Below, in pieces: positions 1,412-54,315 of a stretch of 64,000 nucleotides of DNA (the first letter of the stretch is position 1; each line of letters opens with the position of its first letter). A program made the position numbers and the translations under genes. This DNA comes from Octopus vulgaris. Its lineage: Eukaryota. The stretch lies in the NCBI GenBank assembly GCA_951406725.2, contig OX597818.1:33480001-33544000 (forward strand), read 5' to 3'. The notes below the pieces were generated by a model. It was not told the DNA's origin. It ran no database searches and saw only the letters and a program-made list of their open reading frames with translations.

Positions 1412-1436
1412 GTAATATATATATAATTATATATAT

Positions 1437-3208
1437 ATAACATAAGGGACTAAAGCCATCTGAATATGGCTAGGGACAGGGCAGGGTGGTGGGGGTGTTA
1501 CTGTTGCATTTAGCCCCAGGCGAACATCGACGTCACCAGAAAGGCTAGACACCGTCACGGTGTCCTTATCCTGCAAAGGGAGGTAATTCCCCGATGAAGC
1601 GGAAACCACACACGGATCATGGTTTCAAGGTGTATTGCCTATCGTCGGCGTGTGGTAGGCTTCCGCTTCCTCGACGAATTCTCACTCTGCAGGATATTCA
1701 TATATAGATTTTCAAGCAAAATACATTTGCTGATTTCGAAAATCTGTTCGAAAGCAATAATAATTCTCTAAAAGAGATATAGACAGTAACTGCTCGATAA
1801 CATAAGGGACTAAAGCCATCTGAATATGGCTAGGGACAGGGCAGGGTGGTGGGGGTGTTACTGTTGCATTTAGCCCCAGGCGAACATCGACGTCACCAGA
1901 AAGGCTAGACACCGTCACGGTGTCCTTATCCTGCAAAGGGAGGTAATTCCCCGATGAAGCGGAAACCACACACGGACCATGGTTTCAAGGTGTATTGCCT
2001 ATCGTCGGCGTGTGGTAGGCTTCCGCTTCCTCGACGAATTCTCACTCTGCAGGATATTCATATATAGACTTTCAAGCAAAATACATTTGCTGATTTCGAA
2101 AATCTGTTCGAAAGCAATAATAATTCTCTAAAAGAGATATAGACAGTAACTGCTCGATAACATAAGGGAATAAAGCCATCTGAATATGGCTAGGGACAGG
2201 GCAGGGTGGTGGGGGTGTTACCGTTGCATTTAGCCCCAGGCGAACATCGACGTCACCAGAAAGGCTAGACACCGTCACGGTGTCCTTATCCTGCAAAGGG
2301 AGGTAATTCCCCGATGAAGCGGAAACCACACACGGACCATGGTTTCAAGGTGTATTGCCTATCGTCGGCGTGTGGTAGGCTTCCGCTTCCTCGACGAATT
2401 CTCACTCTGCAGGATATTCATATATAGACTTTCAAGCAAAATACATTTGCTGATTTCGAAAATCTGTTCGAAAGCAATAATAATTCTCTAAAAGAGATAT
2501 AGACAGTAACTGCTCGATAACATAAGGGAATAAAGCCATCTGAATATGGCTAGGGACAGGGCAGGGTGGTGGGGGTGTTACCGTTGCATTTAGCCCCAGG
2601 CGAACATCGACGTCACCAGAAAGGCTAGACACCGTCACGGTGTCCTTATCCTGCAAAGGGAGGTAATTCCCCGATGAAGCGGAAACCACACACGGACCAT
2701 GGTTTCAAGGTGTATTGCCTATCGTCGGCGTGTGGTAGGCTTCCGCTTCCTCGACGAATTCTCACTCTGCAGGATATTCATATATAGACTTTCAAGCAAA
2801 ATACATTTGCTGATTTCGAAAATCTGTTCGAAAGCAATAATAATTCTCTAAAAGAGATATAGACAGTAACTGCTCGATAACATAAGGGAATAAAGCCATC
2901 TGAATATGGCTAGGGACAGGGCAGGGTGGTGGGGGTGTTACCGTTGCATTTAGCCCCAGGCGAACATCGACGTCACCAGAAAGGCTAGACACCGTCACGG
3001 TGTCCTTATCCTGCAAAGGGAGGTAATTCCCCGATGAAGCGGAAACCACACACGGACCATGGTTTCAAGGTGTATTGCCTATCGTCGGCGTGTGGTAGGC
3101 TTCCGCTTCCTCGACGAATTCTCACTCTGCAGGATATTCATATATAGATTTTCAAGCAAAATACATTTGCTGATTTCGAAAATCTGTTCGAAAGCAATAA
3201 TAATTCTC
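1437..3208. repeat. 360-bp tandem repeat, ~4.9 near-identical copies, strongly structured monomer
   Basis: Lines at 1441, 1801, 2161, 2521 and 2881 repeat at an exact 360-bp period, with only about 4 variable positions. The left flank is (TA)n. Confidence 0.98.
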
Positions 3209-14134: not shown

Positions 14135-14890
14135 CAGGGGAACAGGGAGGGTGTTACAAAATCTCATAATTGCAACTTTTGAACCGTAGCTTGAGGAGTG
14201 TTAGGACGTGCATTGTCGTGGTGCAAAATTGGGTCATCTGTATTCACTAGTCTGGGTTACTTCTTTTTCAAATTCTCGTTCATACAATTAATTTCTTGGC
14301 AATACGATGTTGCTGGTACACTTTCTCCTTGTTGCAAAAATAAATAATGAATAACTCCCTTCGCAGACCACCATACAATGACCACTAACTTTTTAGGGTG
14401 CAATAGAGGGTTTGGGTAGTGTTTAGGTGACGCTCGTGCATCTAATCGCTGTCCTGTTCTCCTGCTGTTGTTACAAAAATTGTCTTTTTCCAGTCAAGAA
14501 AGCAATAAGGAGCGGACTTCGAGGCGCCTGCTTTTTTTTCTATCTCGTTCAGTTGATGTGGAACAAACCCATCCGTTTTCTTAAGTTTTCCAATCTCTTC
14601 CAGATGTCTAAAAACACTTCTGTGAGATGTTTGGGGTACTGATAAAAGTTTTCGAACCTTTGTCTTCGGATTTTGTTCAAACAAAGCATTTAATCCATCA
14701 TGCCAAATAACTGATTTTGGCCTACCTCTTGGTTTATTTTCAAGGCTATCATCTCCTGAACAAGAGCTTTGGAACCATCTCTGAACAGTTCTGATGACAA
14801 CAAAACCATTACTAAAGGCCCAGTCGATATTCCGTAGAGATTCTGCGACAAAGTGACTCAGTTTGTACTCATACAAGAAAATCACTCAAC
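14135..14890 (-). mobile_element. Decayed mariner transposase
   Basis: HTH region (IFLYEYKL...RTVQRWF...LENKPRGRP), a WVPHEL-like FVPHQL motif, and LHHDNARP at ~14200-14235. Frameshifted. Confidence 0.85.
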
Positions 14891-19223: not shown

Positions 19224-20211
19224 TTGTCAGAAATGCAATTAATTAGATCGATTCGGGCGTCAAAAACACGAGCGGTCCAACCAATTACATTTTTAGTTAT
19301 GTCTCAAATTCCGCGCCAAGGCATGCCTAGACTCCATTGAAAACGTATGCCGCATCAAATAAAATATTGACTGCCGCGTAGTTAAATTTATAAAATTATA
19401 AATGAGGGTGAAAAATCGATATTAATTTAATAATACCGTCAATTTAACACCAAGTGGCTTAGCACAAAAAACTACGGAGAAAATACAAATTTATACATAA
19501 ATTATTAGAGAGTTATCCACTATGTGGATAACTCTAGTGCTAAAAATAGCTCGAAGCAACCACAGAAAAACCGTTTTCAACTAGAATCAACACACATTCA
19601 ACTGTAGGAAAGTGAAATACAACGAATAAAATAGATTGACTCTATACAATTGTTTCATTACTAATGCAATATGTAGTTTTACTTACATTTGCATCTATAA
19701 ATCTTCGGTAGAGTTTGTCAGAAATGCAATTAATTAGATCGATTCGGGCGTCAAAAACACGAGCGGTCCAACCAATTACATTTTTAGTTATGTCTCAAAT
19801 TCCGCGCCAAAGGCATGCCTAGACTCCATTGAAAACGTATGCCGCATCAAATAAAATATTGACTGCCGCGTAGTTAAATTTATAAAATTATAAATGAGGG
19901 TGAAAAAATGAGGGTGGATAACTCTCTAATAATTTATGTATAAATTTGTATTTTCTCCGTAGTTTTTTGTGCTAAGCCACTTGGTGTTAAATTGACGGTA
20001 TTATTAAATTAATATCGATTTTTCACCCTCATTTATAATTTTATAAATTTAACTACGCGGCAGTCAATATTTTATTTGATGCGGCATACGTTTTCAATGG
20101 AGTCTAGGCATGCATTTGGCGCGGAATTTGAGACATAACTAAAAATGTAATTGGTTGGACCGCTCGTGTTTTTGACGCCCGAATCGATCTAATTAATTGC
20201 ATTTCTGACAA

Positions 20212-20288
20212 ACTCTACCGAAGATTTATAGGATGCAAATGTAAGTAAAACTACATATTGCATTAGTAATGAAACAATTGTATAGAGT
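20212..20288 (+). ncRNA. Type I hammerhead-like motif, array copy 3 (further plus copies at 20706-20781, 21199-21274, 21692-21767)
   Basis: Stem I ACTCTA/TAGAGT (6 bp). Core CCGAAGA...GAAA. Stem II contains ATGCAA/TTGCAT and ATGTA/TACAT. Stem III is the palindrome ACAATTGT with a GUA triplet. Deviations: U4C and a U-U at the base of stem II. Confidence 0.7.
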
Positions 20289-22010
20289 CAATCTATTTTA
20301 TTCGTTGTATTTCACTTTCCTTCAGTTGAATGTGTGTTGATTCTAGTTGGAAACGGTTTTTCTGTGGTTGCTTCGGAGCTATTTTTAGCACTAGAGTTAT
20401 CCACATAGTGGATAACTCTCTAATAATTTATGTATAAATTTGTATTTTCTCCGTAGTTTTTTGTGCTAAGCCACTTGGTGTTAAATTGACGGTATTATTA
20501 AATTAATATCGATTTTTCACCCTCATTTATAATTTTATAAATTTAACTACGCGGCAGTCAATATTTTATTTGATGCGGCATACGTTTTCAATGGAGTCTA
20601 GGCATGCCTTTGGCGCGGAATTTGAGACATAACTAAAAATGTAATTGGTTGGACCGCTCGTGTTTTTGACGCCCGAATCGATCTAATTAATTGCATTTCT
20701 GACAAACTCTACCGAAGATTTATGGATGCAAATGTAAGTAAAACTACATATTGCATTAGTAATGAAACAATTGTATAGAGTCAATCTATTTTATTCGTTG
20801 TATTTCACTTTCCTTCAGTTGAATGTGTGTTGATTCTAGTTGGAAACGGTTTTTCTGTGGTTGCTTCGGAGCTATTTTTAGCACTAGAGTTATCCACATA
20901 GTGGATAACTCTCTAATAATTTATGTATAAATTTGTATTTTCTCCGTAGTTTTTTGTGCTAAGCCACTTGGTGTTAAATTGACGGTATTATTAAATTAAT
21001 ATCGATTTTTCACCCTCATTTATAATTTTATAAATTTAACTACGCGGCAGTCAATATTTTATTTGATGCGGCATACGTTTTCAATGGAGTCTAGGCATGC
21101 TTTTGGCGCGGAATTTGAGACATAACTAAAAATGTAATTGGTTGGACCGCTCGTGTTTTTGACGCCCGAATCGATCTAATTAATTGCATTTCTGACAAAC
21201 TCTACCGAAGATTTATGGATGCAAATGTAAGTAAAACTACATATTGCATTAGTAATGAAACAATTGTATAGAGTCAATCTATTTTATTCGTTGTATTTCA
21301 CTTTCCTTCAGTTGAATGTGTGTTGATTCTAGTTGGAAACGGTTTTTCTGTGGTTGCTTCGGAGCTATTTTTAGCACTAGAGTTATCCACATAGTGGATA
21401 ACTCTCTAATAATTTATGTATAAATTTGTATTTTCTCCGTAGTTTTTTGTGCTAAGCCACTTGGTGTTAAATTGACGGTATTATTAAATTAATATCGATT
21501 TTTCACCCTCATTTATAATTTTATAAATTTAACTACGCGGCAGTCAATATTTTATTTGATGCGGCATACGTTTTCAATGGAGTCTAGGCATGCCTTTGGC
21601 GCGGAATTTGAGACATAACTAAAAATGTAATTGGTTGGACCGCTCGTGTTTTTGACGCCCGAATCGATCTAATTAATTGCATTTCTGACAAACTCTACCG
21701 AAGATTTATGGATGCAAATGTAAGTAAAACTACATATTGCATTAGTAATGAAACAATTGTATAGAGTCAATCTATTTTATTCGTTGTATTTCACTTTCCT
21801 TCAGTTGAATGTGTGTTGATTCTAGTTGAAACGGTTTTTCTGTGGTTGCTTCGGAGCTATTTTTAGCACTAGAGTTATCCACATAGTGGATAACTCTCTA
21901 ATAATTTATGTATAAATTTGTATTTTCTCCGTAGTTTTTTGTGCTAAGCCACTTGGTGTTAAATTGACGGTATTATTAAATTAATATCGATTTTTCACCC
22001 TCATTTATAA

Positions 22011-22048
<38 letters not shown>

Positions 22049-22341: not shown

Positions 22342-23524
22342 TAGATAGATAGCTATAGATAGATGTATATACTCATGGATGGAGGGATGGATAGATACAT
22401 GTATGTATGTAAATATATATGTGTGCGTCTGTGTATGTGTGCTGGTGTATGTACATATAAACATACGCACACACAAACACAAAAACACACACATATCTAT
22501 AGAAAGTGAGACAACTATAGCATAGAAACCAAAGGACTTCCGTATCAAATCGTCTTAATTCTTTCGCTTAGCAACCCTTCTTTTTGTAGGACAGGTTTCA
22601 CTTGGAAACCGGATATTGGGATTTTGTCGACTGCACACCATTACGCGCATGTAAGGTTTCAATTCAAACAACTTGTTTATGATTACCACACCCTGTATCG
22701 TATCTCTTTCAATTCCGAATATCCCGCTGTCTTCGGCAATGGCAGCTTTCATTTATAGCATGCAATCAGATATCACCAGTTATTTCCTTTACTTGTTGCA
22801 AAGCTTCAATCAGGTTTAATCGCAATATTACATTCGATAATATCCTATGTCACTTTATCAGTAGAGTATTCTTTTTCTCCCACGTCTATCTTACCTCTCA
22901 CGTTATTATTCCGATGAATGTTTGCTATAAAATCAGGGTGGAACTTTTTCTTATTTAACGAAGTAATGTAATTTGGCATTTAGTACAAGGTGACCTTACT
23001 TTTAGCTTGGATCAATGTACGGCTTGTGTTTCATTATTGTTTCTTTATAATCTTTCACCAAATACTTTCGAAAGCAGATTAAAAATTCTTAGAAGTGAAA
23101 TAAAAACCATTTAGATTTCTGCTCGAGAAAAGAATCTGTCGTAAGTTGATTTGCAATATTTTTTGCATAGTATCTCCTCTGTATAAGTAAAGAACTAATA
23201 CCATTCTTATGTTTGTGTATGTATGTATGTATGTATGTATGTATGTGCGCGCGCGTGTGTGTGTGCGTGTGTGTATGAGTGTGGAACAAATATTTGTTTG
23301 TGTTAGCACTACCGCACGTAAACACATACATATGCACGTATGTGCAAGTTATCACATAAGTGTGGAGATACGTAGTTTTTATGTATACTGAGTATGTTAC
23401 ACATAGCTCACATCTATTTTCTTTCTTCCACCTCACTCTCTATTTTGTATCCTATCTAAATTAATTATTACTTAACCATCCTCTCACGCCGTCTCCGATG
23501 AAGTGATATAATATATATACATAT

Positions 23525-23580
<56 letters not shown>

Positions 23581-23582
<2 letters not shown>

Positions 23583-24942
23583 TTTCCGACCAGGAAGAAG
23601 CTGCTTAACTCAGCTCCTGCAGCACTATGACTGGGTGCTGAAACAACTGCTCAACCACTCAAATGTGGAAGTCATATATCTCGACTTCGCAAAGGCCTTC
23701 GATAAAGTCGATCATGGAATGATATGTCACAAACTGCGTGATCTTGGCATAGTTGGAAAACTAGGAGAATGGCTTCACGACTTTCTGAAGAATAGAAGTC
23801 AGGTGGTAGTAGCCAATGGGGCCACTTCCATTAGCACGCAAATAGTGAGCGGTGTTCCACAGGGCACTGTTTTGGGACCACTACTGTTCATAATGGCCCT
23901 CTCAGACATGCCCTCAGCCACGCGGAGAGCCACGATCACAAGTTATGCAGATGATACAAAAGTTTCACAGGCAATACAGAACCCTGAAGACACTAGGCAC
24001 ATGCAATATGAGCTGGACGAAATATACAAGTGGGCTGAAAAGAATAGCATGCAGTTCAATGCTGAAAAGTTTCAAGCTTTATACTATCAGCATGCAAAAC
24101 TGAATGCAATACCCAAGGAATACACTGGACCCGGAGGGATTGCAATCCCAGAGGCACAATCAGTGCGTGACCTGGGTATTCACATGAGTGATGACGCGAC
24201 CTTTCATGTACATGTTGCTAAACTGACAATGAAATGCAGACGGCTGGCTGGATGGATTCTTAGAACCTTTAGAACAAGAGAACAAGAAACCATGATGGTC
24301 CTCTGGAAGACACTTGCCCTAAGTCACTTTGACTATTGCTCTCAGCTATGGTCACCATCCAGTGTCAAGTTGATCACAGAACTTGAGGCGATCCAACGAA
24401 GCTACACGAAGAAGATAGCCTCTATGCAGAATGTAAGCTACTGGGAAAGACTCAAGAGATTAAAATTATATTCCCTGGAGCGTAGGCGGGAAAGATATGC
24501 CATAATATACATCTGGAAGATCCTGGAGGAAGTGTCCTGAACTTTGGCATCGAGAGTTACGCAAACGCCAGAACTGGGCGCCACTGCGTGGTGCCTAGGA
24601 CTCCAAACTTGCCATCAAGATGTAGGACAAGATTCTGTGATAGCCTGGGCTTCCGAGGCCCACAGCTCTTCAATATCCTCCCGATGAACCTGAGAGACCT
24701 GCATGGGGTGGATACAGATGTCTTTAAAATGGAGCTGGATCTCTTCCTGTCAGGTGTCCCAGATGAACCAACTTCACGGCAGGAGGGGCAGATGAGGGCA
24801 GCTGCATCGAACTCTCTCATGCACCAAATAGCAGTTGCTAGAAAGCCTCCATGAAGTGAAACCAAGTAGCAACACCAAATGGCGGTGCCCCAGCATGGCC
24901 ACAGCTCATAAGCTGAAACTGGAATTAATCAATCAATCAATC
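23581..24942 (+). mobile_element. 5'-truncated CR1-group LINE (RT domain, 3' UTR, (AATC)n tail) inserted in (TA)n
   Basis: GFRPGRSCLTQLL, YLDFAKAFDKVDH, SGVPQGTVLGPLLF, YADDTK and SLERRRER motifs. One frameshift near 24535. Tail AATCAATCAATC. Confidence 0.95.
23635..24540 (+). pseudogene. Reverse transcriptase ORF fragment of the CR1-group LINE (301 aa)
   Basis: ORF track; canonical non-LTR RT motifs. No endonuclease domain, because of the truncation. Confidence 0.93.
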
Positions 24943-29345: not shown

Positions 29346-31310
29346 GTTAATTTATTACCCACACCGAAGGGACAAAATACAATATAGAACCTTTCTTTCT
29401 GAAAATAAACAAAAAGGAGGAGAAAGTAAATATCCGATCAAAAGGGATCATGTATCACAGAAAATATCACTAATGTCCAAAAATAAGACAGATTAGGTTT
29501 ATCCGTGGAAAGAAAAGCGTATGGAAAAGACCATGGTAACCTCAGGCAGGGAGGGAAAAAACACATGAGAGCAAAGTGCTCTCTCTCTCTCTCTCTCGCT
29601 CTCTGTCTCTCTCTTTTCGATTTATAGGATCATGCTCAAAGTGGTTTCGTCATTCTTGCGTACCATCTTTGCTACATTCACCCACCTTTTATTGAATCTT
29701 TCACGAGATAAAATTTGCCTCTCTATTCTCGCCTTCCTTTTCAAATGGTACTTGAAAACATTGATAAGCGATTGGCCAGAGAGGAATGTGTTTGTCTCTA
29801 ATCCTTTCGCTCGAGTCAACCACACACATTCTTTCACCATGCCCACCAATACGATGAATACCAACTTGCCTTCCCGGTAGACTCGGCTGACAAGCGAACT
29901 CGTTCCACACGTGACAGCTAGTTGTTCGGCATAAGCCTACAGGTCCGAAATGGTTGGACACTGCAGAACGGTCTCGTGAGTGCAGAACGATCTCGTGCCT
30001 CTGACCACATCTCGGGCAAGTCGGTCCGGTATGTCTCGAACCGTGCCTGTAGATCTTATCCCGAACGAGCATTGCTTGACGATAGCACTGACAGGCCAGG
30101 GGCTCTGGTGATTGTCCATAGGTCCCGGCCCGAAAGTTGTCCTGAACAGGTGGGTCAGGTGTTCCTCGTAGACGCCCAGATTCTGCCCGAGAACGTCGTC
30201 GCACCTTCCCTCCACTAATCCTCTATAGAAGGCCTTTGTGGAATTGGAGTCGCATAAGTTTGGTCCCGGACAGCAGAGTTGCTTGAGAGCAAGGCGGTAC
30301 TCGCGGTGCCATTCGTCTAGCCTCGGTCTCTGTTTGATCCACGACTGCAGTTCGGTGAAAGAGACGAGCTGCGAGAAATCGCGCAGCACAAACAGCGACC
30401 ACGCCTGTTCACTGTCGTCTATGAAGCGCCGGAGATGTCACAGTCTCAGCTCATGTCTGCGCATCATCAACCACGACATGCCCAGCCCTCCATCGGAACA
30501 CTTCCCATCCACAAAAAGCGGAAGAGTATGCGTTCCACTTTGGTGATGGTAGGGTCGGGACAAGGTATGACTGTCAGCCGGTAATCGATGACGGATACGA
30601 TGTATTCGTTCGCCACCTCCACCCGACCTTTTAGGGACAGCTTCTCGGCCCATTGCTGTTTGAGAGTGGCCACCCTACTCGTTATCTCACCCAAATTCTT
30701 CTCCATTTCGAGGTCCGAACCGAACCATACTCCAAGCAATTTAACCGGTCCATCAGTCCAGCGTCCCACGATGGAAACGCTTTTGGACGGCATATGCTTG
30801 CTTCTCCAGTTGCCGAGCTGCAAGCCCACTGACTTTCGCCGGTTAATTTTTGCTCCCGTTACCGCTTTGTATTCTTTTAGTGTTCCAATCCCCCATTAGA
30901 CGTAAAGGTCGAGACGTTCGCAGGAAAACCTCTAGATGTCGAAAGAAATCTGGTCGGCCTGTTAAGGACGGTGCATAAACTGTTATGAGTCGAAAACCAC
31001 ACCCATTACTGCCATCAACATCCAAGACGACCAGCCTACACTCAGGACCTAGGAAAATTGCTCTTACTTTAAGGTCCAGACTATACCGAAGAAGCACCGC
31101 GGTGCCGCCTCCGCCTCATCTCGGTAGACACGGAGAAAAATATCGAAATGTCCGCTGAACATGTGCTGGAGGGCCCGCAGGGTGTGGAGCCTGGACTTGC
31201 TGATGGTTATCATTTGCAGATTCTGTGACTTGGTGTCATTTAACAGGTAGCCTTGTTTCCAAGGCGGTCCCAAGCCACATACATTTATACTACCTATTTT
31301 AAGCATGTTC
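29345..31310 (-). mobile_element. Decayed L1/Tx1-clade LINE with the RT core deleted; 3' end abuts (GATA)n
   Basis: APE start MLKIGSINVCGL, VYAP and GDWN motifs are joined directly to the post-YADD region. C-terminal CPRC zinc motif. Collinear with 50972-53933. Confidence 0.9.
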
Positions 31311-32240
31311 CAATCGAAAGTTGTGTTTTGCGAAAGAGAAAGAAAGAAAGAGAGAGAGAGATAGAAAGAGGCACTTACTGTCCGAAAGTTCTTTGTCCTT
31401 CATCTCACAGTCTTCTCCCAGACAGTTATTTGTGAAATCTCCCTACTGCATCCGGTTACAGAGATTTCAGTGTGCTGTGGGTGTTCTGTGTTATGTGTAT
31501 TATTTTAATGTGTTGTGGCAGTGTTGTGCGTGGGTGATTTTTTGTTTGGTATCGTTTTCTGTTATGTTGGTGTTTGACCTAATGTATTCCATTAGGTCTG
31601 AATTATTGGTGTTTATAGTTGTCAACATTGATGTGGTGTTTGGTGTTAGTGTGTTTGTGTTGATGTTTTTTATTTCCTGCGGGTGTTTTGGCTTCGGGAG
31701 TGGTAAACATCTCTGCTTTGTTTATCCGCTTCTCTATTCTTTTTCCCCTTTTTTCTCCCCTACCCCCTGTAGCCACCTGCCAATCCTATGTGTCGTCTTC
31801 CTCTGACATGTTGGAGGAATCAGAAGGTGAGAAGGGACAGGTATTGGGGTCTATTTCTTAGTATGTTGATTTTGTTGGTGGTGTTGGTGCTGGTTGGTGA
31901 CAGTTGTGATGTGGTGTATGGGATTTTGGGGGTGGGGTATTTTTGGTTTTCTCTTCTTCCATTAGGGTTGTTGTAGGTGGTGGTGATGGTGTTGTTTCTG
32001 TTCTTGGTGACGCTAGTGGTGGCGTTGTTTGGTTGGGCTGGCTTGTTGGTTGCTAATATTCCTTCATTTGTTTGTAGAGCTTTGTATGTGTGTGCGCATA
32101 TGCGTGTGTGTGTGTGTGCGTATGCTTGTGTGTGTGCGCATGCGTGTGTGTGTGAGTATGTGTGTGTGTGTGTGCGTGTGAAGAAATCGAAGGAATGAAG
32201 CATAACAGAAAAGTGTGAGCCACCACATCTATCCTGGTAA
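31311..32240 (-). other. Low-complexity sequence upstream of Tx1 ORF2, possibly a remnant of ORF1 or the 5' region
   Basis: Position only. Strongly G/T-skewed repetitive sequence with no recognisable domain. Confidence 0.3.
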
Positions 32241-39125: not shown

Positions 39126-40591
39126 TATATAAATATGAAAAAAATTACGATATGAAACCAACAGAATCTGACCCCATAGTGCCTGCAATAACCTGTAGAT
39201 AAATAAATTTCTTGTGAGTACAGTGTAAATTTCTCCAGTGATTCTATTAAATATATACGCATGCACACATGTATCCAGTAATTTTATTAGATTCATTGAG
39301 CAGTCAGAATTTACACAAACACATTTGACTTTTCCTTCTTATATCTCTGTTTAAATTTTGTTTAAATCTAACGGCCACAAATACAAGAATATACACATGA
39401 AGCTATCACAAAATTTCGCAAAACTCAAACAGCCTTCACTTACGAAATTATTTTTTCTCCTTCACACAAAGAAAGAGAAATACCACTAAGTTATTAACTA
39501 GTCAAGTGATAGAAGGAAATACACATAACAAGCAGAATAAAATCACTTTAGAGAAACTACTATCACCATAACTTTCCACTCGTATATTTCTGTTTAAACT
39601 AACGGCCACATACACAATATTATAAATTTAAAACACAAAAACTCAAACAACTTTCAGTTTCAAAGTTATTTTTTCTCCATCACATAGTGGGTGTTATAGA
39701 AAAAGGATAATCCACCTAAATCATTGACTTAGAAAACAAAAGTAAGAAAAGACATCAAGTACTATCACCATGAGCAAAATAGCCCAAAAGAAACTTCACT
39801 GAACAGAGAATGAAATTAATATTCGACTCAACAGCTGGCTTGACCTTTCACAAAAAGCCAACACACAAGCGTCATGTCTCAGTGACGTTGCTTATAAAAT
39901 TGTCCTACTTCTTGACAATCGAACAACAAAACAAGTGGAATCTAAATTAAAGCATATTTCGAAATCCTACCTCCTCGTTAAGGAGCATTTTATAATACTC
40001 CTCTCGCTGACTCTACTAAACGATTTTACGAAACGAAAACAACCTACAAATTTAATAAATCCCTGAGCGAAGTATAAACAGTAGCTGCACGACATCGTGA
40101 AGTATATATGCCACTTAAATGTGGCTAACCCTTAAGGTTAACCTCTTCCAGCTGGCTATTGACACACTATCTGTGCCCTATCAGTATTTGCAAAGGGAAG
40201 CCATTCTTCCCGTCTCCAACCTGACGCACGGACTCGAGTTTCTGGGTATTGACCCATCATCAGCGCGTGACAATCGCCGGTTATCGATGTGATTCTACTA
40301 AACGAAAACAACATACCGCTACTGACCTGTTAACCGTCCAACCTACTAATGCCCACATACCAAAATCAGCTCACTCCATGATTACCATGACAACCAATTC
40401 CTCATACCCATCATCAGCAACATCACTACCATCACGATTAAAATTCACTACAGCTGTTTCGCTAAATGTAGTTATAAAATATTACCTCATAATGTGCTTA
40501 TCACTATAATCAGGTAAAATTTTAAACAGGTAGTTCAGCAATTATTAGCTAATGTGTGCTGTGTCTGGGTTGGTGCTTAAAATATTACCTG

Positions 40592-42529: not shown

Positions 42530-43590
42530 ATGGGGGGAGTCGATTCGATCGTTCTCAGTACGCAACTGGTACTTAATTTATCTACCCCGAAAGGATGAAA
42601 GGTAACGACGACCTCGACGGAATTTGAACTCACAACGTAAAGACAGACGAAGTACCTATTTCTATTTCTTTACCACCCACAAGGGGCTAAACACAGAAAG
42701 GACAAAACAAGGAGAGACAAACGGATTAAGTCGATTATATCGACCCCAGTGCGTAACTGCTACTTATCTAATCGACCCCGAAAGAATAAAAGGCAAAGTC
42801 GACCTCGGCGGAATTTGAACTCAGAACGTAGCGGCAGACGAAATACCTATTTCTTTACTACCCACAAGGGGCTAAACACAGAGAGGACAAACAAGAACAG
42901 ACAAACGGATTAAGTCGATTACATCGACCCCAAAAGGATGAAAGGCAAAGTCGACCTCGGCGGAATTTGAACTCAGAACGTAAAGACAGACGAGATACCT
43001 ATTTCTATTTCTTTACTATCCATAAGGGGCTAAACACAGAGAGGACAAACAAGGACAGACAAACGGATTAAGTCGATTACATCGATCCCAGTGCTTAACT
43101 GGTACTTCTTTAATCGACCCCGAGAGGATGAAAGGCAAAGTAGACCTCGGCGGAATTTGAACTCAGAACGTAAAGACAGACGAGATACCTATTTCTATTT
43201 CTTTATTACCCACAAGGGGCTAAACGCAGAGAGGACAAACAAGGACAGAAAGACGGTATAAGTCGATTATATCGACCCCAGTGCGTAACTGGTACTTATT
43301 TAATCGACCCCGAAAGGATGAAAGGCAAAGTCGACCTCGGCGGAATTTGAACTCAGAGCGTAACGGCAGACGAAATACCTATTTCTTTACTACCCACAAG
43401 GGGCTAAACATAGAGATGACAAACGGATTAAGTCGATAACATCGACCGCAGTGCGTAACTGGTATTTATTTAATCGACCCCGAAAGGATGAAAGGCAAAG
43501 TCGACCTCGGCAGAATTTGAACTCAGAACGTAACGGCAGACGAAATACCGGTTAGCATTTCGCCCGGCGTTGCTGCCAGCTCGCCGCCGT
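42530..43590 (-). mobile_element. Tandemly multimerised tRNA/Nin-like SINE (one 5' head plus ~5.5 repeats of ~155-185 bp)
   Basis: GAAAGGCAAAGTCGACCTCGGCGGAATTTGAACTCAG recurs six times. The head GGCGGCGAGCTGGCAG occurs once, at ~43573-43588 (minus). Confidence 0.9.
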
Positions 43591-50971: not shown

Positions 50972-53932
50972 AAGTTTCTTTATTGGCCACACAGGGCTGC
51001 ACACAGATGGGACAAGTTACAAGGTAGAGCTTTTCTTTTGGGGGATGAAGAAAAGGGGGTGGCGTAGGTTTTCGATCAAGAGGGATCGTAAAAGGGAAGA
51101 AAAGAACAAAAAAAAAAAGAAAAAAAGAAGAAAAAAAATTAGAATAAAAAATATAAAGAATAAAAGAAAAAAAAATGAAAGGGAAAGGAACAAAAGAAAA
51201 GAGAAATGAAAAAGGAAGAAAAGGGGGAAAAAAGGGGAAGAGGAGAGAGAAAAAAAAAGGAACGATCAATAGGGATCGTGTATCACAGTGTTATGATATA
51301 TGGTGTAAAGGGGAAAGCAAGTAAGGTTTATCCGTGGGAAGAAAAGCCTACGAAAAAGACCACGGTAACCTTGGTCAATATTGTTATATGTTACCACATT
51401 TGTTTGCAAGTGGGTAACCCTCTGTTTTCAATTTCTGGGTTCATAGGATTATGCTCAAGGTGGCTTCGTCATTCATACGTGCCATCCTTGCTACATTCAC
51501 CCATCTTTTTTTAAAACATTCGCTAGACAAAACTTGCCTCTCTACTCTCACTTTCCTTTTCAAGTGGTACTTGAAGAAGTTGATGAGAGATTGACCAGAG
51601 AGGAAAGTGTTTGTCTCCAATCCTTTCAGACGCGTCCACCAGATAAATTCTTTCGCCATAGCCACAAGGATGATGAAAATAGCTCTTCCTTCCCGTTTGA
51701 AGGAAGGAGGCGTGACAATATTGACGATAGACTCAGCTGATAAACCGACTCGTCCCACACGTGACAGCAGTTGTTCGACACAAGCCCACAGGTCAGAAAT
51801 TGTTGGACACTGCACGAGTGCGTGCAGAACGGTTTCGTCGCTCTGACCGCATCTCGGGCAGGTCGGCCCCGTGTTTCTCGAGCCGTGTCTGTAGAGCTTA
51901 TCCCGAACGGGTAGCGCTTCTCGGTAACACTGCCAGGCCAGGGATCTCTGGAAGTTGTCCATGGGCCCTGGCCCGAAAGTCGTCCCGAACAGGCGGGTCA
52001 GGTATTCCTCGTCGACGTCCAGGTTCGCCCCGAGCTCGTCGTCGTAGCTCCCCTCTACTAATCCCCTATAGAATGCTTTGGTTGTGTTGAAGTCACTCAA
52101 GGTCGACCCAGGACGGCAGAGTTGCTTGAGAGCAACGCGACACTCGCGGTGCCATTCGCCCTTCCTCGGCCTCTTTTTGATCCACGACTGCAGTTCGGTC
52201 ATGGAGACGAGCTGCGGGAAAGCGTGCCTCACAAACGGCGACCACACCTGTTCACCGTCGTCTACATAGAACCAGAGATGTCGCAGTCTCAGCGCGTGTC
52301 TGCGCATCATCAACCACGGCATGCCCAGCCCTCCTTTTAACGGGTGTTGACAGCAAATGGATCGCCTGACCATCGGGACGCATCCTTTCCACAAGAAGCG
52401 AAAGAGAATGCGTTGTAGTTTGGTGATGGTAGGGTCGGGACAAGGTACGACGTTCAGGCGGTAGTAGATGACGGACGCGATGTACGTGTTCGCCACCTCC
52501 GCCCAACCTTTTAGGGACAGTTTCCTCTTGGCCCATTGCCGGGCGAGAGTGACTATCCTACTCGTTATCTCGTTCCAGTTCTTCTCCACTTGGAGGTCCG
52601 GACCAAACCAGACCCCGAGTAACTCAACCGGGCCGTCGGTCCAGCGTCCCACGACGGAGGCGCTGGTGGACGGCATGGGCTTGCTTCTCCAGGTGCCTAG
52701 TCGCAAGCCCACTGACTTTTCCCGGTTGATTTTCGCTCCTGTCACCGCTTCGTAGTTTTTCAGTGTCTCGCCGACCTGCTCGATGTGCTCGTGGCTAGAC
52801 ACTATGACGGTGACGTCGTCCGCGTATGCAGACACGCTCGTCCCGCATCCCAGTTCTCGCGATTGCCCTTCAAAGTTGCCAGCTTCCGCAATAATGGCTC
52901 GAGAGTCAATACGTATAGAAGCGACGAGAGGGGGCATCCCTGACGGACCGAACGTGCGATGTCGAAGGGTCTCGATAGATGTCCATTCACGTGAATTACC
53001 GAACGGATGCCCCTGTACAAAGCGGCTATCCAGCCGCGGAAGATGGGACCGAAGCCAGCCGCTCTGAGGACCGCCTCCAAGTATCGATGGTCTACCCTAT
53101 CGAAAGCTTTCGATTGATCCAAATTGATCAGCGCCCCACCCATGCCAGGTCCGTTAACTACCCTGTCTATGATGTAGCGCATCAGGTGGAGGTTGTCATG
53201 GATGGTCCGGCCTGGCACGGCGCATGTTTGCGCCTTGTCGACCAGTTTCTGGATGACAAGTGCCAACCTCTTGGCTAGCACCTTGGCCAAAATTTTCAAG
53301 TCTGCATTAAGCAGAGTGATGGGCCTAATGTTATCTATTACATTTCCCTTGTTTAGATCTTTCTTCAGCAGTGTTACGGCTCCTCGGCTCACAAAACCAG
53401 GAATGCTCCCGTTTTGCTGCCAGTTGCAGTACACCGCCGCCAAGAGATCTCCAAACAAGTCTGGCATACAATTGTAAAGCTCGTAGGGTAGACCATCCAA
53501 ACCCGGTGATTTGTCCCTCGAGCATTCTGCCATCGCGTCCTGCACTTCCGCCGCCGTGATGGCACCTTCGCAGCACCCTGCCTTTCTTGTCGAGAGTCGT
53601 GGTAGGCTATGTAGGTAGGCACTGAAGTCCACCCTACGTTCTTGCCCTCCACTCGTCCCGAACAGTCGGGCAAAATGCTGCTGAAAAGCCTCACACATTT
53701 TACTTGGCTCGAGCAATTCGCGGCCCTGTTCATCTACCAGGGACCGAATGGTGGCTTTGTTGCCCTGTTGCGCCTCTGCCACTCGGGCCTCTCTCGCGGC
53801 TCCAACACCTTCGTTCCTTAGAGCACGCATCCTAGCTATGACAGCACATCCTTCGTGTTTGGCGTTGAAGTGTTGGTCGAGGGCCAACCTCGCCGCCAAA
53901 ACGTCGGATGCGATGCCGCTTCTAATTGCCTC

Positions 53933-53933
<1 letters not shown>
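50972..53933 (-). mobile_element. 5'-truncated L1/Tx1-clade LINE flanked on both sides by (GATA)n
   Basis: [51 protein letters not shown] and CPRC..H...C motifs. One frameshift near 52850. AATAAA lies near the 3' end. Confidence 0.95.
51441..53933 (-). pseudogene. ORF2 (RT plus zinc-binding C-terminus) of the Tx1-type LINE, frameshifted
   Basis: ORFs 52802-54154 (whose N-terminus is microsatellite) and 51441-52937 are two frames of one RT polypeptide. Confidence 0.92.
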
Positions 53934-53994
<61 letters not shown>

Positions 53995-54162
53995 GGATGG
54001 ATGGATGGATGGATGGATGGATGGATGGATGGATGGATGGATGGATGGATGGATGGATGGATGGATGGATGGATGGATGGATGGATGGATGGATGGATGG
54101 ATGGATGGATGGATGGATGGATGATGGATGGGTGGGTGGGTGGATAGATATCAAACTTGCTA

Positions 54163-54315
54163 AAGGCGGCGAGCTGGCAGACTCATTAGCACGCCGAGAA
54201 AATTGCTTGGCGGCATTTCGTCTGTCTTAATGTTCTGATTTCAAATTCTGCTGAAGCCGACTTTACCTTTCATCCTTTCGTGGTTGATAAAAGGAGTACC
54301 AACTGAGGACTGGGA
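54163..54315 (+). mobile_element. Nin-like tRNA SINE, 3'-truncated
   Basis: Head GGCGGCGAGCTGGCAGA followed by GACTTTACCTTTCATCCTTTCG. Confidence 0.75.

Follow-up and report, generated by a model that had tools for sequence, protein, structure and literature searches.

In this study, we found that the 360-bp tandem array in a 64,000-nt stretch of the Octopus vulgaris genome (the window, which is the whole stretch analysed) is one copy of a young, widely scattered, non-coding repeat family, here called family A. The family carries a variant hammerhead motif on its minus strand. It is likely that this copy was inserted into a TA repeat by the reverse transcriptase/endonuclease of a Penelope-like element (PLE), probably with a 360-nt RNA circle as template. 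Among the best 40 of 1041 candidates from a DNA search, copies of 98-100% identity were found on many contigs. An exact 33-mer of family A has 1,966 matches in the 2.8-Gb genome, and extrapolation from the first 100 of them, which fall in 44 loci, gives about 870 loci. Two sister families, B (about 355 bp; 373 matches of one 30-mer) and the older D, follow the same plan at about 70% identity. The units are dispersed, non-coding and in tandem, fall within 150-450 bp, and hold one hammerhead motif each. An earlier note on this DNA had treated the array as a second one and had named a single-locus tandem duplication as the alternative; the array belongs instead to a dispersed family, and genome-wide dispersal together with the mapping of insertion arms refutes the duplication. 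The note's broader suggestion of a dispersed, young, structured and retrotransposed unit resembling a retrozyme is supported.

Running TRF on the window returned a period of 360, 4.9 copies and 99% identity, in agreement with the earlier description. The unit is indeed richer in GC than its surroundings (46%, vs 38% and 30% in the two flanks), its left end abuts (TA)n, and the helices named before are present in all nine pairs checked, including TATCCTGCA/TGCAGGATA and AATTC/GAATT. The five copies differ at 4 positions in all. With monomer position 1 set at window 1801, the array is a lone arm that starts from the 357 site and is truncated at monomer 328, and a 44-nt tail is present in every unit (Table 1). 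It is a mosaic, with 10A/62C in copies 3-5 and 269C in copies 2-4, and its units run in the order consensus, three identical permuted units, consensus. No frame of at least 100 aa overlaps it, the RT plus GIY-YIG frame of an autonomous PLE is absent from it, and no target-site duplication (TSD) is visible around it. A G-rich run, GGGACAGGGCAGGGTGGTGGGGG, lies at 1831-1856 (+), not far past the 357 start, and could fold into a quadruplex on the plus (cDNA) strand; it is retained only in part in family B.

Table 1. Features of the family A array, in window coordinates
Feature	Position	Strand	Basis
Family A insertion, single-armed, 4.9 units	1437..3208	- (RNA sense)	TRF, end mapping, family dispersal
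(TA)n target at the fixed 3' end, monomer 357	1416..1436		sequence; TA flank in 112/120 arms
44-nt 'tail' between both fixed 3' ends, monomer 356 to 313	1753..1796 (copy 1)	-	arm-end mapping
Variable 5'-truncated end, monomer 328, joined to unique DNA	3195..3208	-	end mapping
Long rod, hammerhead at tip	1927..2056		folding
Type I hammerhead motif, copy 1, carries G16.2A (window 1617)	1609..1655	-	motif reading
Type I hammerhead motif, copy 2, predicted cut between 1975 and 1974	1969..2015	-	motif reading, covariation
Hammerhead motif, copy 3	2329..2375	-	motif reading
Hammerhead motif, copy 4	2689..2735	-	motif reading
Hammerhead motif, copy 5	3049..3095	-	motif reading
Candidate snRNA-type promoter, ATCAGC at 2094-2089	2035..2094	-	inferred from motif spacing

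The array had previously been called non-hammerhead and credited with a possibly different processing motif. The first description does not hold and the second is not supported, as a type I motif with a U4C core lies inside the very rod noted earlier, on the strand that had not been treated as sense. The minus strand of the unit reads CACACG, CCGACGA, U-AGG-CAAUACA-CCU-U, GAAA, C-CAUG-G, UC, cut, CGUGUG, so that copy 2 comprises helix I CACACG/CGUGUG, the core CCGACGA (U4C), helix II AGG/CCU with U.U at its base, GAAA, the palindromic CCAUGG, and GUC before the predicted cut. Three helices surround the core, helix I is open, and the pairs covary. This type I topology and the lack of a TSD separate the unit from plant-type LTR retrozymes, with their type III hammerhead in LTRs, PBS/PPT and 4-bp TSD. 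In copy 1, G16.2A breaks helix III and the palindrome. U4C is the sole deviation from the canonical core (C3 U4 G5 A6 N7 G8 A9 / G12 A13 A14 / NUH), and a CUGA core occurs genome-wide in only 8 A/B-type copies. In 194 motif copies taken from a sample of A and B loci, CCGACGA is the most frequent core (98 in the top row), followed by CCGAUGA (32), and older copies have UUGAYGA, UUGAUAA (U3-A8) or CUGACGA, with U3.G8 also found in older copies; the core of family D is the canonical CUGAUGA. The G10.1-C11.1 pair is absent throughout, being U.U in A, G.U in B and C.A in D.

Across 17 hand-picked variants of families A, B and D, pairing is held in 99.2% of 238 cells and 5 of the 14 pairs are changed on both sides, vs 19-55% of cells pairing in slid controls; because the variants are related and selected, this shuffle control is lenient. 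Position 7 varies in the same set, and there is one U3-A8 swap. Loop 3 is palindromic in all (CCAUGG, CCUAGG, CUAUAG, CUCGAG) and able to form 8-bp dimers, and the fold is retained across families only about 70% identical. The dimer-type metazoan hammerhead is a known kind that matches this motif (PMC4209133; PMC7229834). U4C is reported to occur naturally and to cut in vitro activity considerably, yet to support a viroid (PMC3088659), and U.U at the base of helix II is also present in axolotl HHR_Amex2, which cleaves (PMC7229834). A plus-strand look-alike, CCGAUGA-AGCG-GAAA (1951-1965), was rejected, since it has no helix II and family B does not contain it. No fit was obtained for HDV-like, hairpin, twister or pistol folds, which were compared by eye with their consensuses and otherwise through an Rfam scan.

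That the monomer is mostly base-paired, as noted earlier, was confirmed by z-scores against shuffles. Linear folding gave z-scores of -5.7 (+) and -7.0 (-), with 0/100 shuffles equally good, and circular folding gave -4.3 (+) and -6.3 (-) against 60 shuffles, with 62-64% of bases paired; the minus strand beats its shuffles by more than the plus strand in both modes. A stable self-paired monomer is likewise a mark of metazoan non-LTR retrozymes. The folding model predicts that the hammerhead at the rod tip is trapped in an inactive hairpin, the alternative hairpin of the young subfamily having a predicted energy of -20.9 kcal/mol vs -4.4 when the monomer takes up the hammerhead fold; the corresponding figure for the older UU core is -16.5 kcal/mol. 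Xenopus retrozyme dimers are reported to have cleaved in vitro in only one of nine cases (bioRxiv 10.64898/2026.07.22.740005). Judged from its sequence, the ribozyme of the young subfamily may still be active, and we give this the same weight as its having been lost.

The ends of the insertions point to how the family spreads. We mapped 120 arms in 70 loci, comprising 43 of the 44 loci of C1:0-142 Mb and 27 loci picked for full units, leaving out arms shorter than 40 nt and the 5' end of L133, which runs off its locus. The outer ends lie at monomer 355-360 in 59 arms and at 311-320 in 55, with 6 elsewhere, so that two sites with a spacing of 44 nt account for the outer ends of 114 of the 120 arms. 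A TA flank is found beside 112/120 arms, and the inner (5') ends are scattered. Among the 50 two-armed, head-to-head loci, 44 use one arm per site (357+313), 6 have one eroded end, and none uses the same site twice. Twenty of the 70 loci were scored single-armed, including L008 and L116, in which a folded-back second arm is likely (and visible for L008). Families B and D end at the same two sites. Because the fixed ends face outward, the minus strand is taken as the RNA strand, which agrees with the strand of the hammerhead.

Fixed 3' ends, an optional tail, variable 5' ends, an inverted arm and a microsatellite target, all found here, make up the footprint of a PLE-mobilised unit. PLE insertions are described as having a 30-40-bp tail at one end, an inverted 5'-truncated copy and a (TA)n bias (PMC8557442). 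PLE copying has been reported to initiate internally at two sites, each strand of the target being cut and then extended, and hammerhead cleavage to be dispensable for PLE insertion in vitro (PMC11167929). Judged by this analogy, the footprint of family A is that of PLEs, and it is also found on autonomous PLEs of the same genome. Family A is very likely a PLE-mobilised hammerhead retrozyme.

The autonomous elements comprise Neptune-type PLEs (CX2-5CxxC linker, 781-aa frame, RVT_1 and GIY-YIG) together with a second clade whose frames reach 1091 aa; elements of both groups terminate in (TA)n and have two 3' ends. The rule of one arm per site was followed at six autonomous loci (L182, L250, L279, L283, L284 and L285), with L263 as an exception. 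The tails in the autonomous families examined are 32 nt and about 118 nt, vs 44 nt in family A. The hammerhead of the L182 family (CCGAAGA-U...U-GAAA) has the U4C and U.U variant seen in family A. In 107 PLE-bearing loci (30+20+20+25+12), from a search that scored 150 of 6136 GIY-YIG candidates, no autonomous element was found whose 3' end is homologous to the monomer. The best match, in L182, turned out on detailed checking to be an independent insertion of family D; matches to monomers in L234, L267 and L282 were likewise regarded as retrozyme insertions in their own right, and the 8-nt end TTATTGCT common to the monomer and the second PLE clade is not long enough to carry weight.

Other observations were made on these elements. 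Hammerhead cores with CCGA (U4C) occur at L182:4290-4345, in an autonomous Neptune-type element, and at L188:1784, in another repeat, and other PLE 3' ends carry U3.G8 and U3-A8 cores. Since U4C, U3.G8 and U3-A8 occur in several PLEs or repeats, variant cores are common in this genome. L274 (G000:C9:84177000-84184000) and its relatives L276-L285 form a young PLE clade, possibly the Hydra clade, with 980-1090-aa frames, a long Asn-rich linker, a hammerhead whose helix II is long, and a tail that, at about 118 nt, far exceeds the 30-40 nt described for PLEs. The high-copy Neptune-type element at L179:1-1240 has an open frame of at least 327 aa upstream of, and in a different frame from, its 781-aa RT-EN frame.

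Several lines of evidence bear on the template. The two arms of one locus share a haplotype (18/22 identical vs 6% between loci; 0/5000 permutations), and therefore both come from one template or one donor. Of the 120 arms, 90 cross the cleavage site, at which 5' ends show no accumulation (4 observed vs 2.3 expected), indicating that the template was a circle or an uncut multimer rather than a cut linear monomer. Some variants are private to a locus: genome-wide, 71C is present only in six units of one locus, and 4/7 matches of 11C lie in the two inverted arms of another. When units with more than 6 odd differences were excluded, A>G on the RNA strand accounted for 11/24 multi-unit rare variants vs 2/75 single-unit ones (p 1e-6). 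ADAR has an expected neighbour bias, and no such preference was found at the A>G sites (5' G at 7/18). Locus-private, A>G-biased variants suit changes made on an RNA circle and copied at each turn. Like the window array, L178 and L176 (11C absent from one of five units) are mosaic; therefore one circle pass is insufficient, and template switches, a multimer or later local amplification are needed. The rolling-circle cDNA origin proposed in the earlier note is thus only partly borne out: shared haplotypes, private variants and crossing of the cut site favour the copying of one RNA circle, although this is not proved, and a circular template as such is somewhat more probable than any other.

Each unit may also contain its own promoter. 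ATCAGC stands 59 nt before GTCG (a possible start, at 2035) and 86 nt before the hammerhead core in every unit, and is the only ATCAG[CT] motif of the monomer, on the minus strand only. In this genome, ATCAG[CT] is found at -57 to -61 in 17/20 U2 genes, and the same spacing to (A/G)TCG occurs in 20/20 family A units, most B units and some D units among those listed. Local alignment of U2 upstream regions with the monomers gave no convincing match, only the spacing of the 6-nt motif. We therefore put forward an snRNA-type promoter inside each unit as a hypothesis, a 6-nt motif being weak ground. A look for expression turned up no RNA record with the unit among the entries listed. Contigs of four runs cover the unit and its sister families, contigs being blind to strand, level and circularity.

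Taken together, these data are consistent with the following pathway. A tandem locus would be transcribed on the minus strand, possibly from the putative internal promoter. Neighbouring hammerheads are predicted to pair through the palindromic loop 3 and to cut at GUC, freeing 360-nt monomers that a host ligase would close into circles; the U4C core and the alternative hairpin probably slow cutting and so keep the circles intact. As its footprint suggests, a PLE protein would cut both strands of (TA)n and use the two DNA ends to prime cDNA on one and the same RNA, with one end placed at each of the two internal sites 44 nt apart. Each cDNA would run a variable distance, often more than one unit, before the two are joined head to head, the outcome that is seen at the loci. 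Where one arm is missing, as at the window array, a single 5'-truncated array would be left.

More tentatively, and with less confidence than in the circular template alone, these steps may form one concerted reaction. A dimeric PLE enzyme would prime both ends of the TA repeat at the two fixed sites on a single 360-nt circle and copy it by rolling; A>G changes made at the RNA level, by editing or transcription errors, would be written into all units. The young subfamily would have succeeded by damping its hammerhead (U4C plus the trapping hairpin), so that circles persist, and copying of more than a unit would rebuild the snRNA-type promoter upstream of the next unit.

It is also conceivable, if rather unlikely, that the PLE enzyme inserts an uncleaved linear multimer, in which the hammerhead is a crippled passenger and the extra units reflect how long the donor was, together with local amplification at a later stage. 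The U4C core and an inactive hairpin predicted to be about 16 kcal/mol more stable would fit this, as would mosaic arrays such as that of the window, and unprocessed RNA was the dominant PAc substrate in vitro (PMC11167929). However, locus-private variants fill all units or both inverted arms, the multi-unit variant spectrum is unlike single-unit DNA mutations, and the hammerhead fold has been kept between families of only about 70% identity.

Much less probable, and largely refuted, is the notion that the unit represents an autonomous PLE's 3' end (pLTR), present as truncated stumps and not as a self-standing non-autonomous family. PLE stumps do have the same ends, and retrozymes are described as pLTR derivatives (bioRxiv 10.64898/2026.07.22.740005). 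Nevertheless, arms in the 70 family A loci run on into further monomer units and never into an ORF, 37/72 arms of the C1 set are longer than one unit, and neither family B nor family D has a linked ORF. It is highly improbable that the unit represents a hammerhead-free circular-RNA system that relies on a new processing motif. The Rfam ribozyme scan of the window array, at gathering score and E-value thresholds, found nothing beyond chance, as such a system would predict; but the scan also missed the canonical-core hammerheads of family D and the Neptune hammerheads, so its silence is uninformative, and a covarying hammerhead is present. Least credible is a satellite or foldback DNA transposon amplified at the DNA level, which tandem units and inverted arms would suit but which is disfavoured by outer ends that differ by a fixed 44 nt, unequal arms with variable inner ends, the single-armed loci (20/70) and a strand-biased variant spectrum.

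The window holds further repeats. A 493-bp tandem array at 19500-22011, whose left arm is inverted and whose right end lies in (TA)n, has the same architecture as family A; it contains a CCGAAGA...GCAA hammerhead-like stretch without a clean fit and has a 78% relative in L245. A decayed single copy of family D lies at 40050-40290 (-), with a canonical-core hammerhead at 40218-40274. The stretches at 51441-54226 and 29701-31400 (-) we take to be Tx1/L1-like LINE fragments (RT plus C-terminal zinc-finger region), 23512-24854 (-) a CR1/RTE-like RT fragment, 14442-14885 (-) presumably a mariner-like transposase fragment, and 42771-43549 presumably a tandem SINE-like repeat.

The route by which animal retrozymes return to the genome as copies, and the enzyme responsible, are named as open questions in PMC7229834 and bioRxiv 10.64898/2026.07.22.740005. 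The approximately 870 near-identical loci constrain that step tightly: they have a PLE-type footprint with obligatory pairing of both start sites, their two arms share one template, and their ends bear no relation to the cleavage site. So clean a footprint ties retrozyme spread to PLE chemistry, and a published purified PLE system (PMC11167929) makes circle vs multimer directly testable. The results also show that entire families that look active can escape standard hammerhead searches when their cores are variant. Our literature search found no report on cephalopod retrozymes or on strict start-site pairing, although subscription journals and supplements may hold one.

Compared with known systems, family A resembles endonuclease-bearing PLEs of the Neptune clade and PAc (PMC8557442; PMC11167929; PMC4209133) in that it has a tail at one end, an inverted arm truncated on its 5' side, a microsatellite as target, a hammerhead that lies upstream of the 3' ends, and two sites of internal initiation; unlike them, it has no ORF, and it has no 3' homology to the autonomous families examined in the genome. 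Chlamys non-autonomous PLEs such as MRC1 are likewise non-coding, multicopy, head-to-tail and made in trans by a PLE, but they generally match an autonomous family at the 3' end, and a hammerhead is missing from most Chlamys elements (PMC8557442). With metazoan non-LTR retrozymes (PMC7229834; bioRxiv 10.64898/2026.07.22.740005), family A shares a non-coding tandem unit of 150-450 bp with GC below 50%, one type I hammerhead per unit with a short helix III and a palindromic loop, a self-paired monomer, and the co-occurrence of PLEs; U.U at the base of helix II recalls axolotl HHR_Amex2, and the closest retrozymes are the mussel 350-390-bp repeats and axolotl Rtz353. It differs from them in its non-canonical core (U4C fixed in the young subfamily, U3.G8 in older copies), its predicted sequestration of the hammerhead, and its (TA)n target without a TSD, and its strict two-site head-to-head footprint is not described in the parts of those two sources available. 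By its architecture and its covarying, non-canonical hammerhead, as read from the sequence, family A is a variant of the known animal non-LTR retrozymes.
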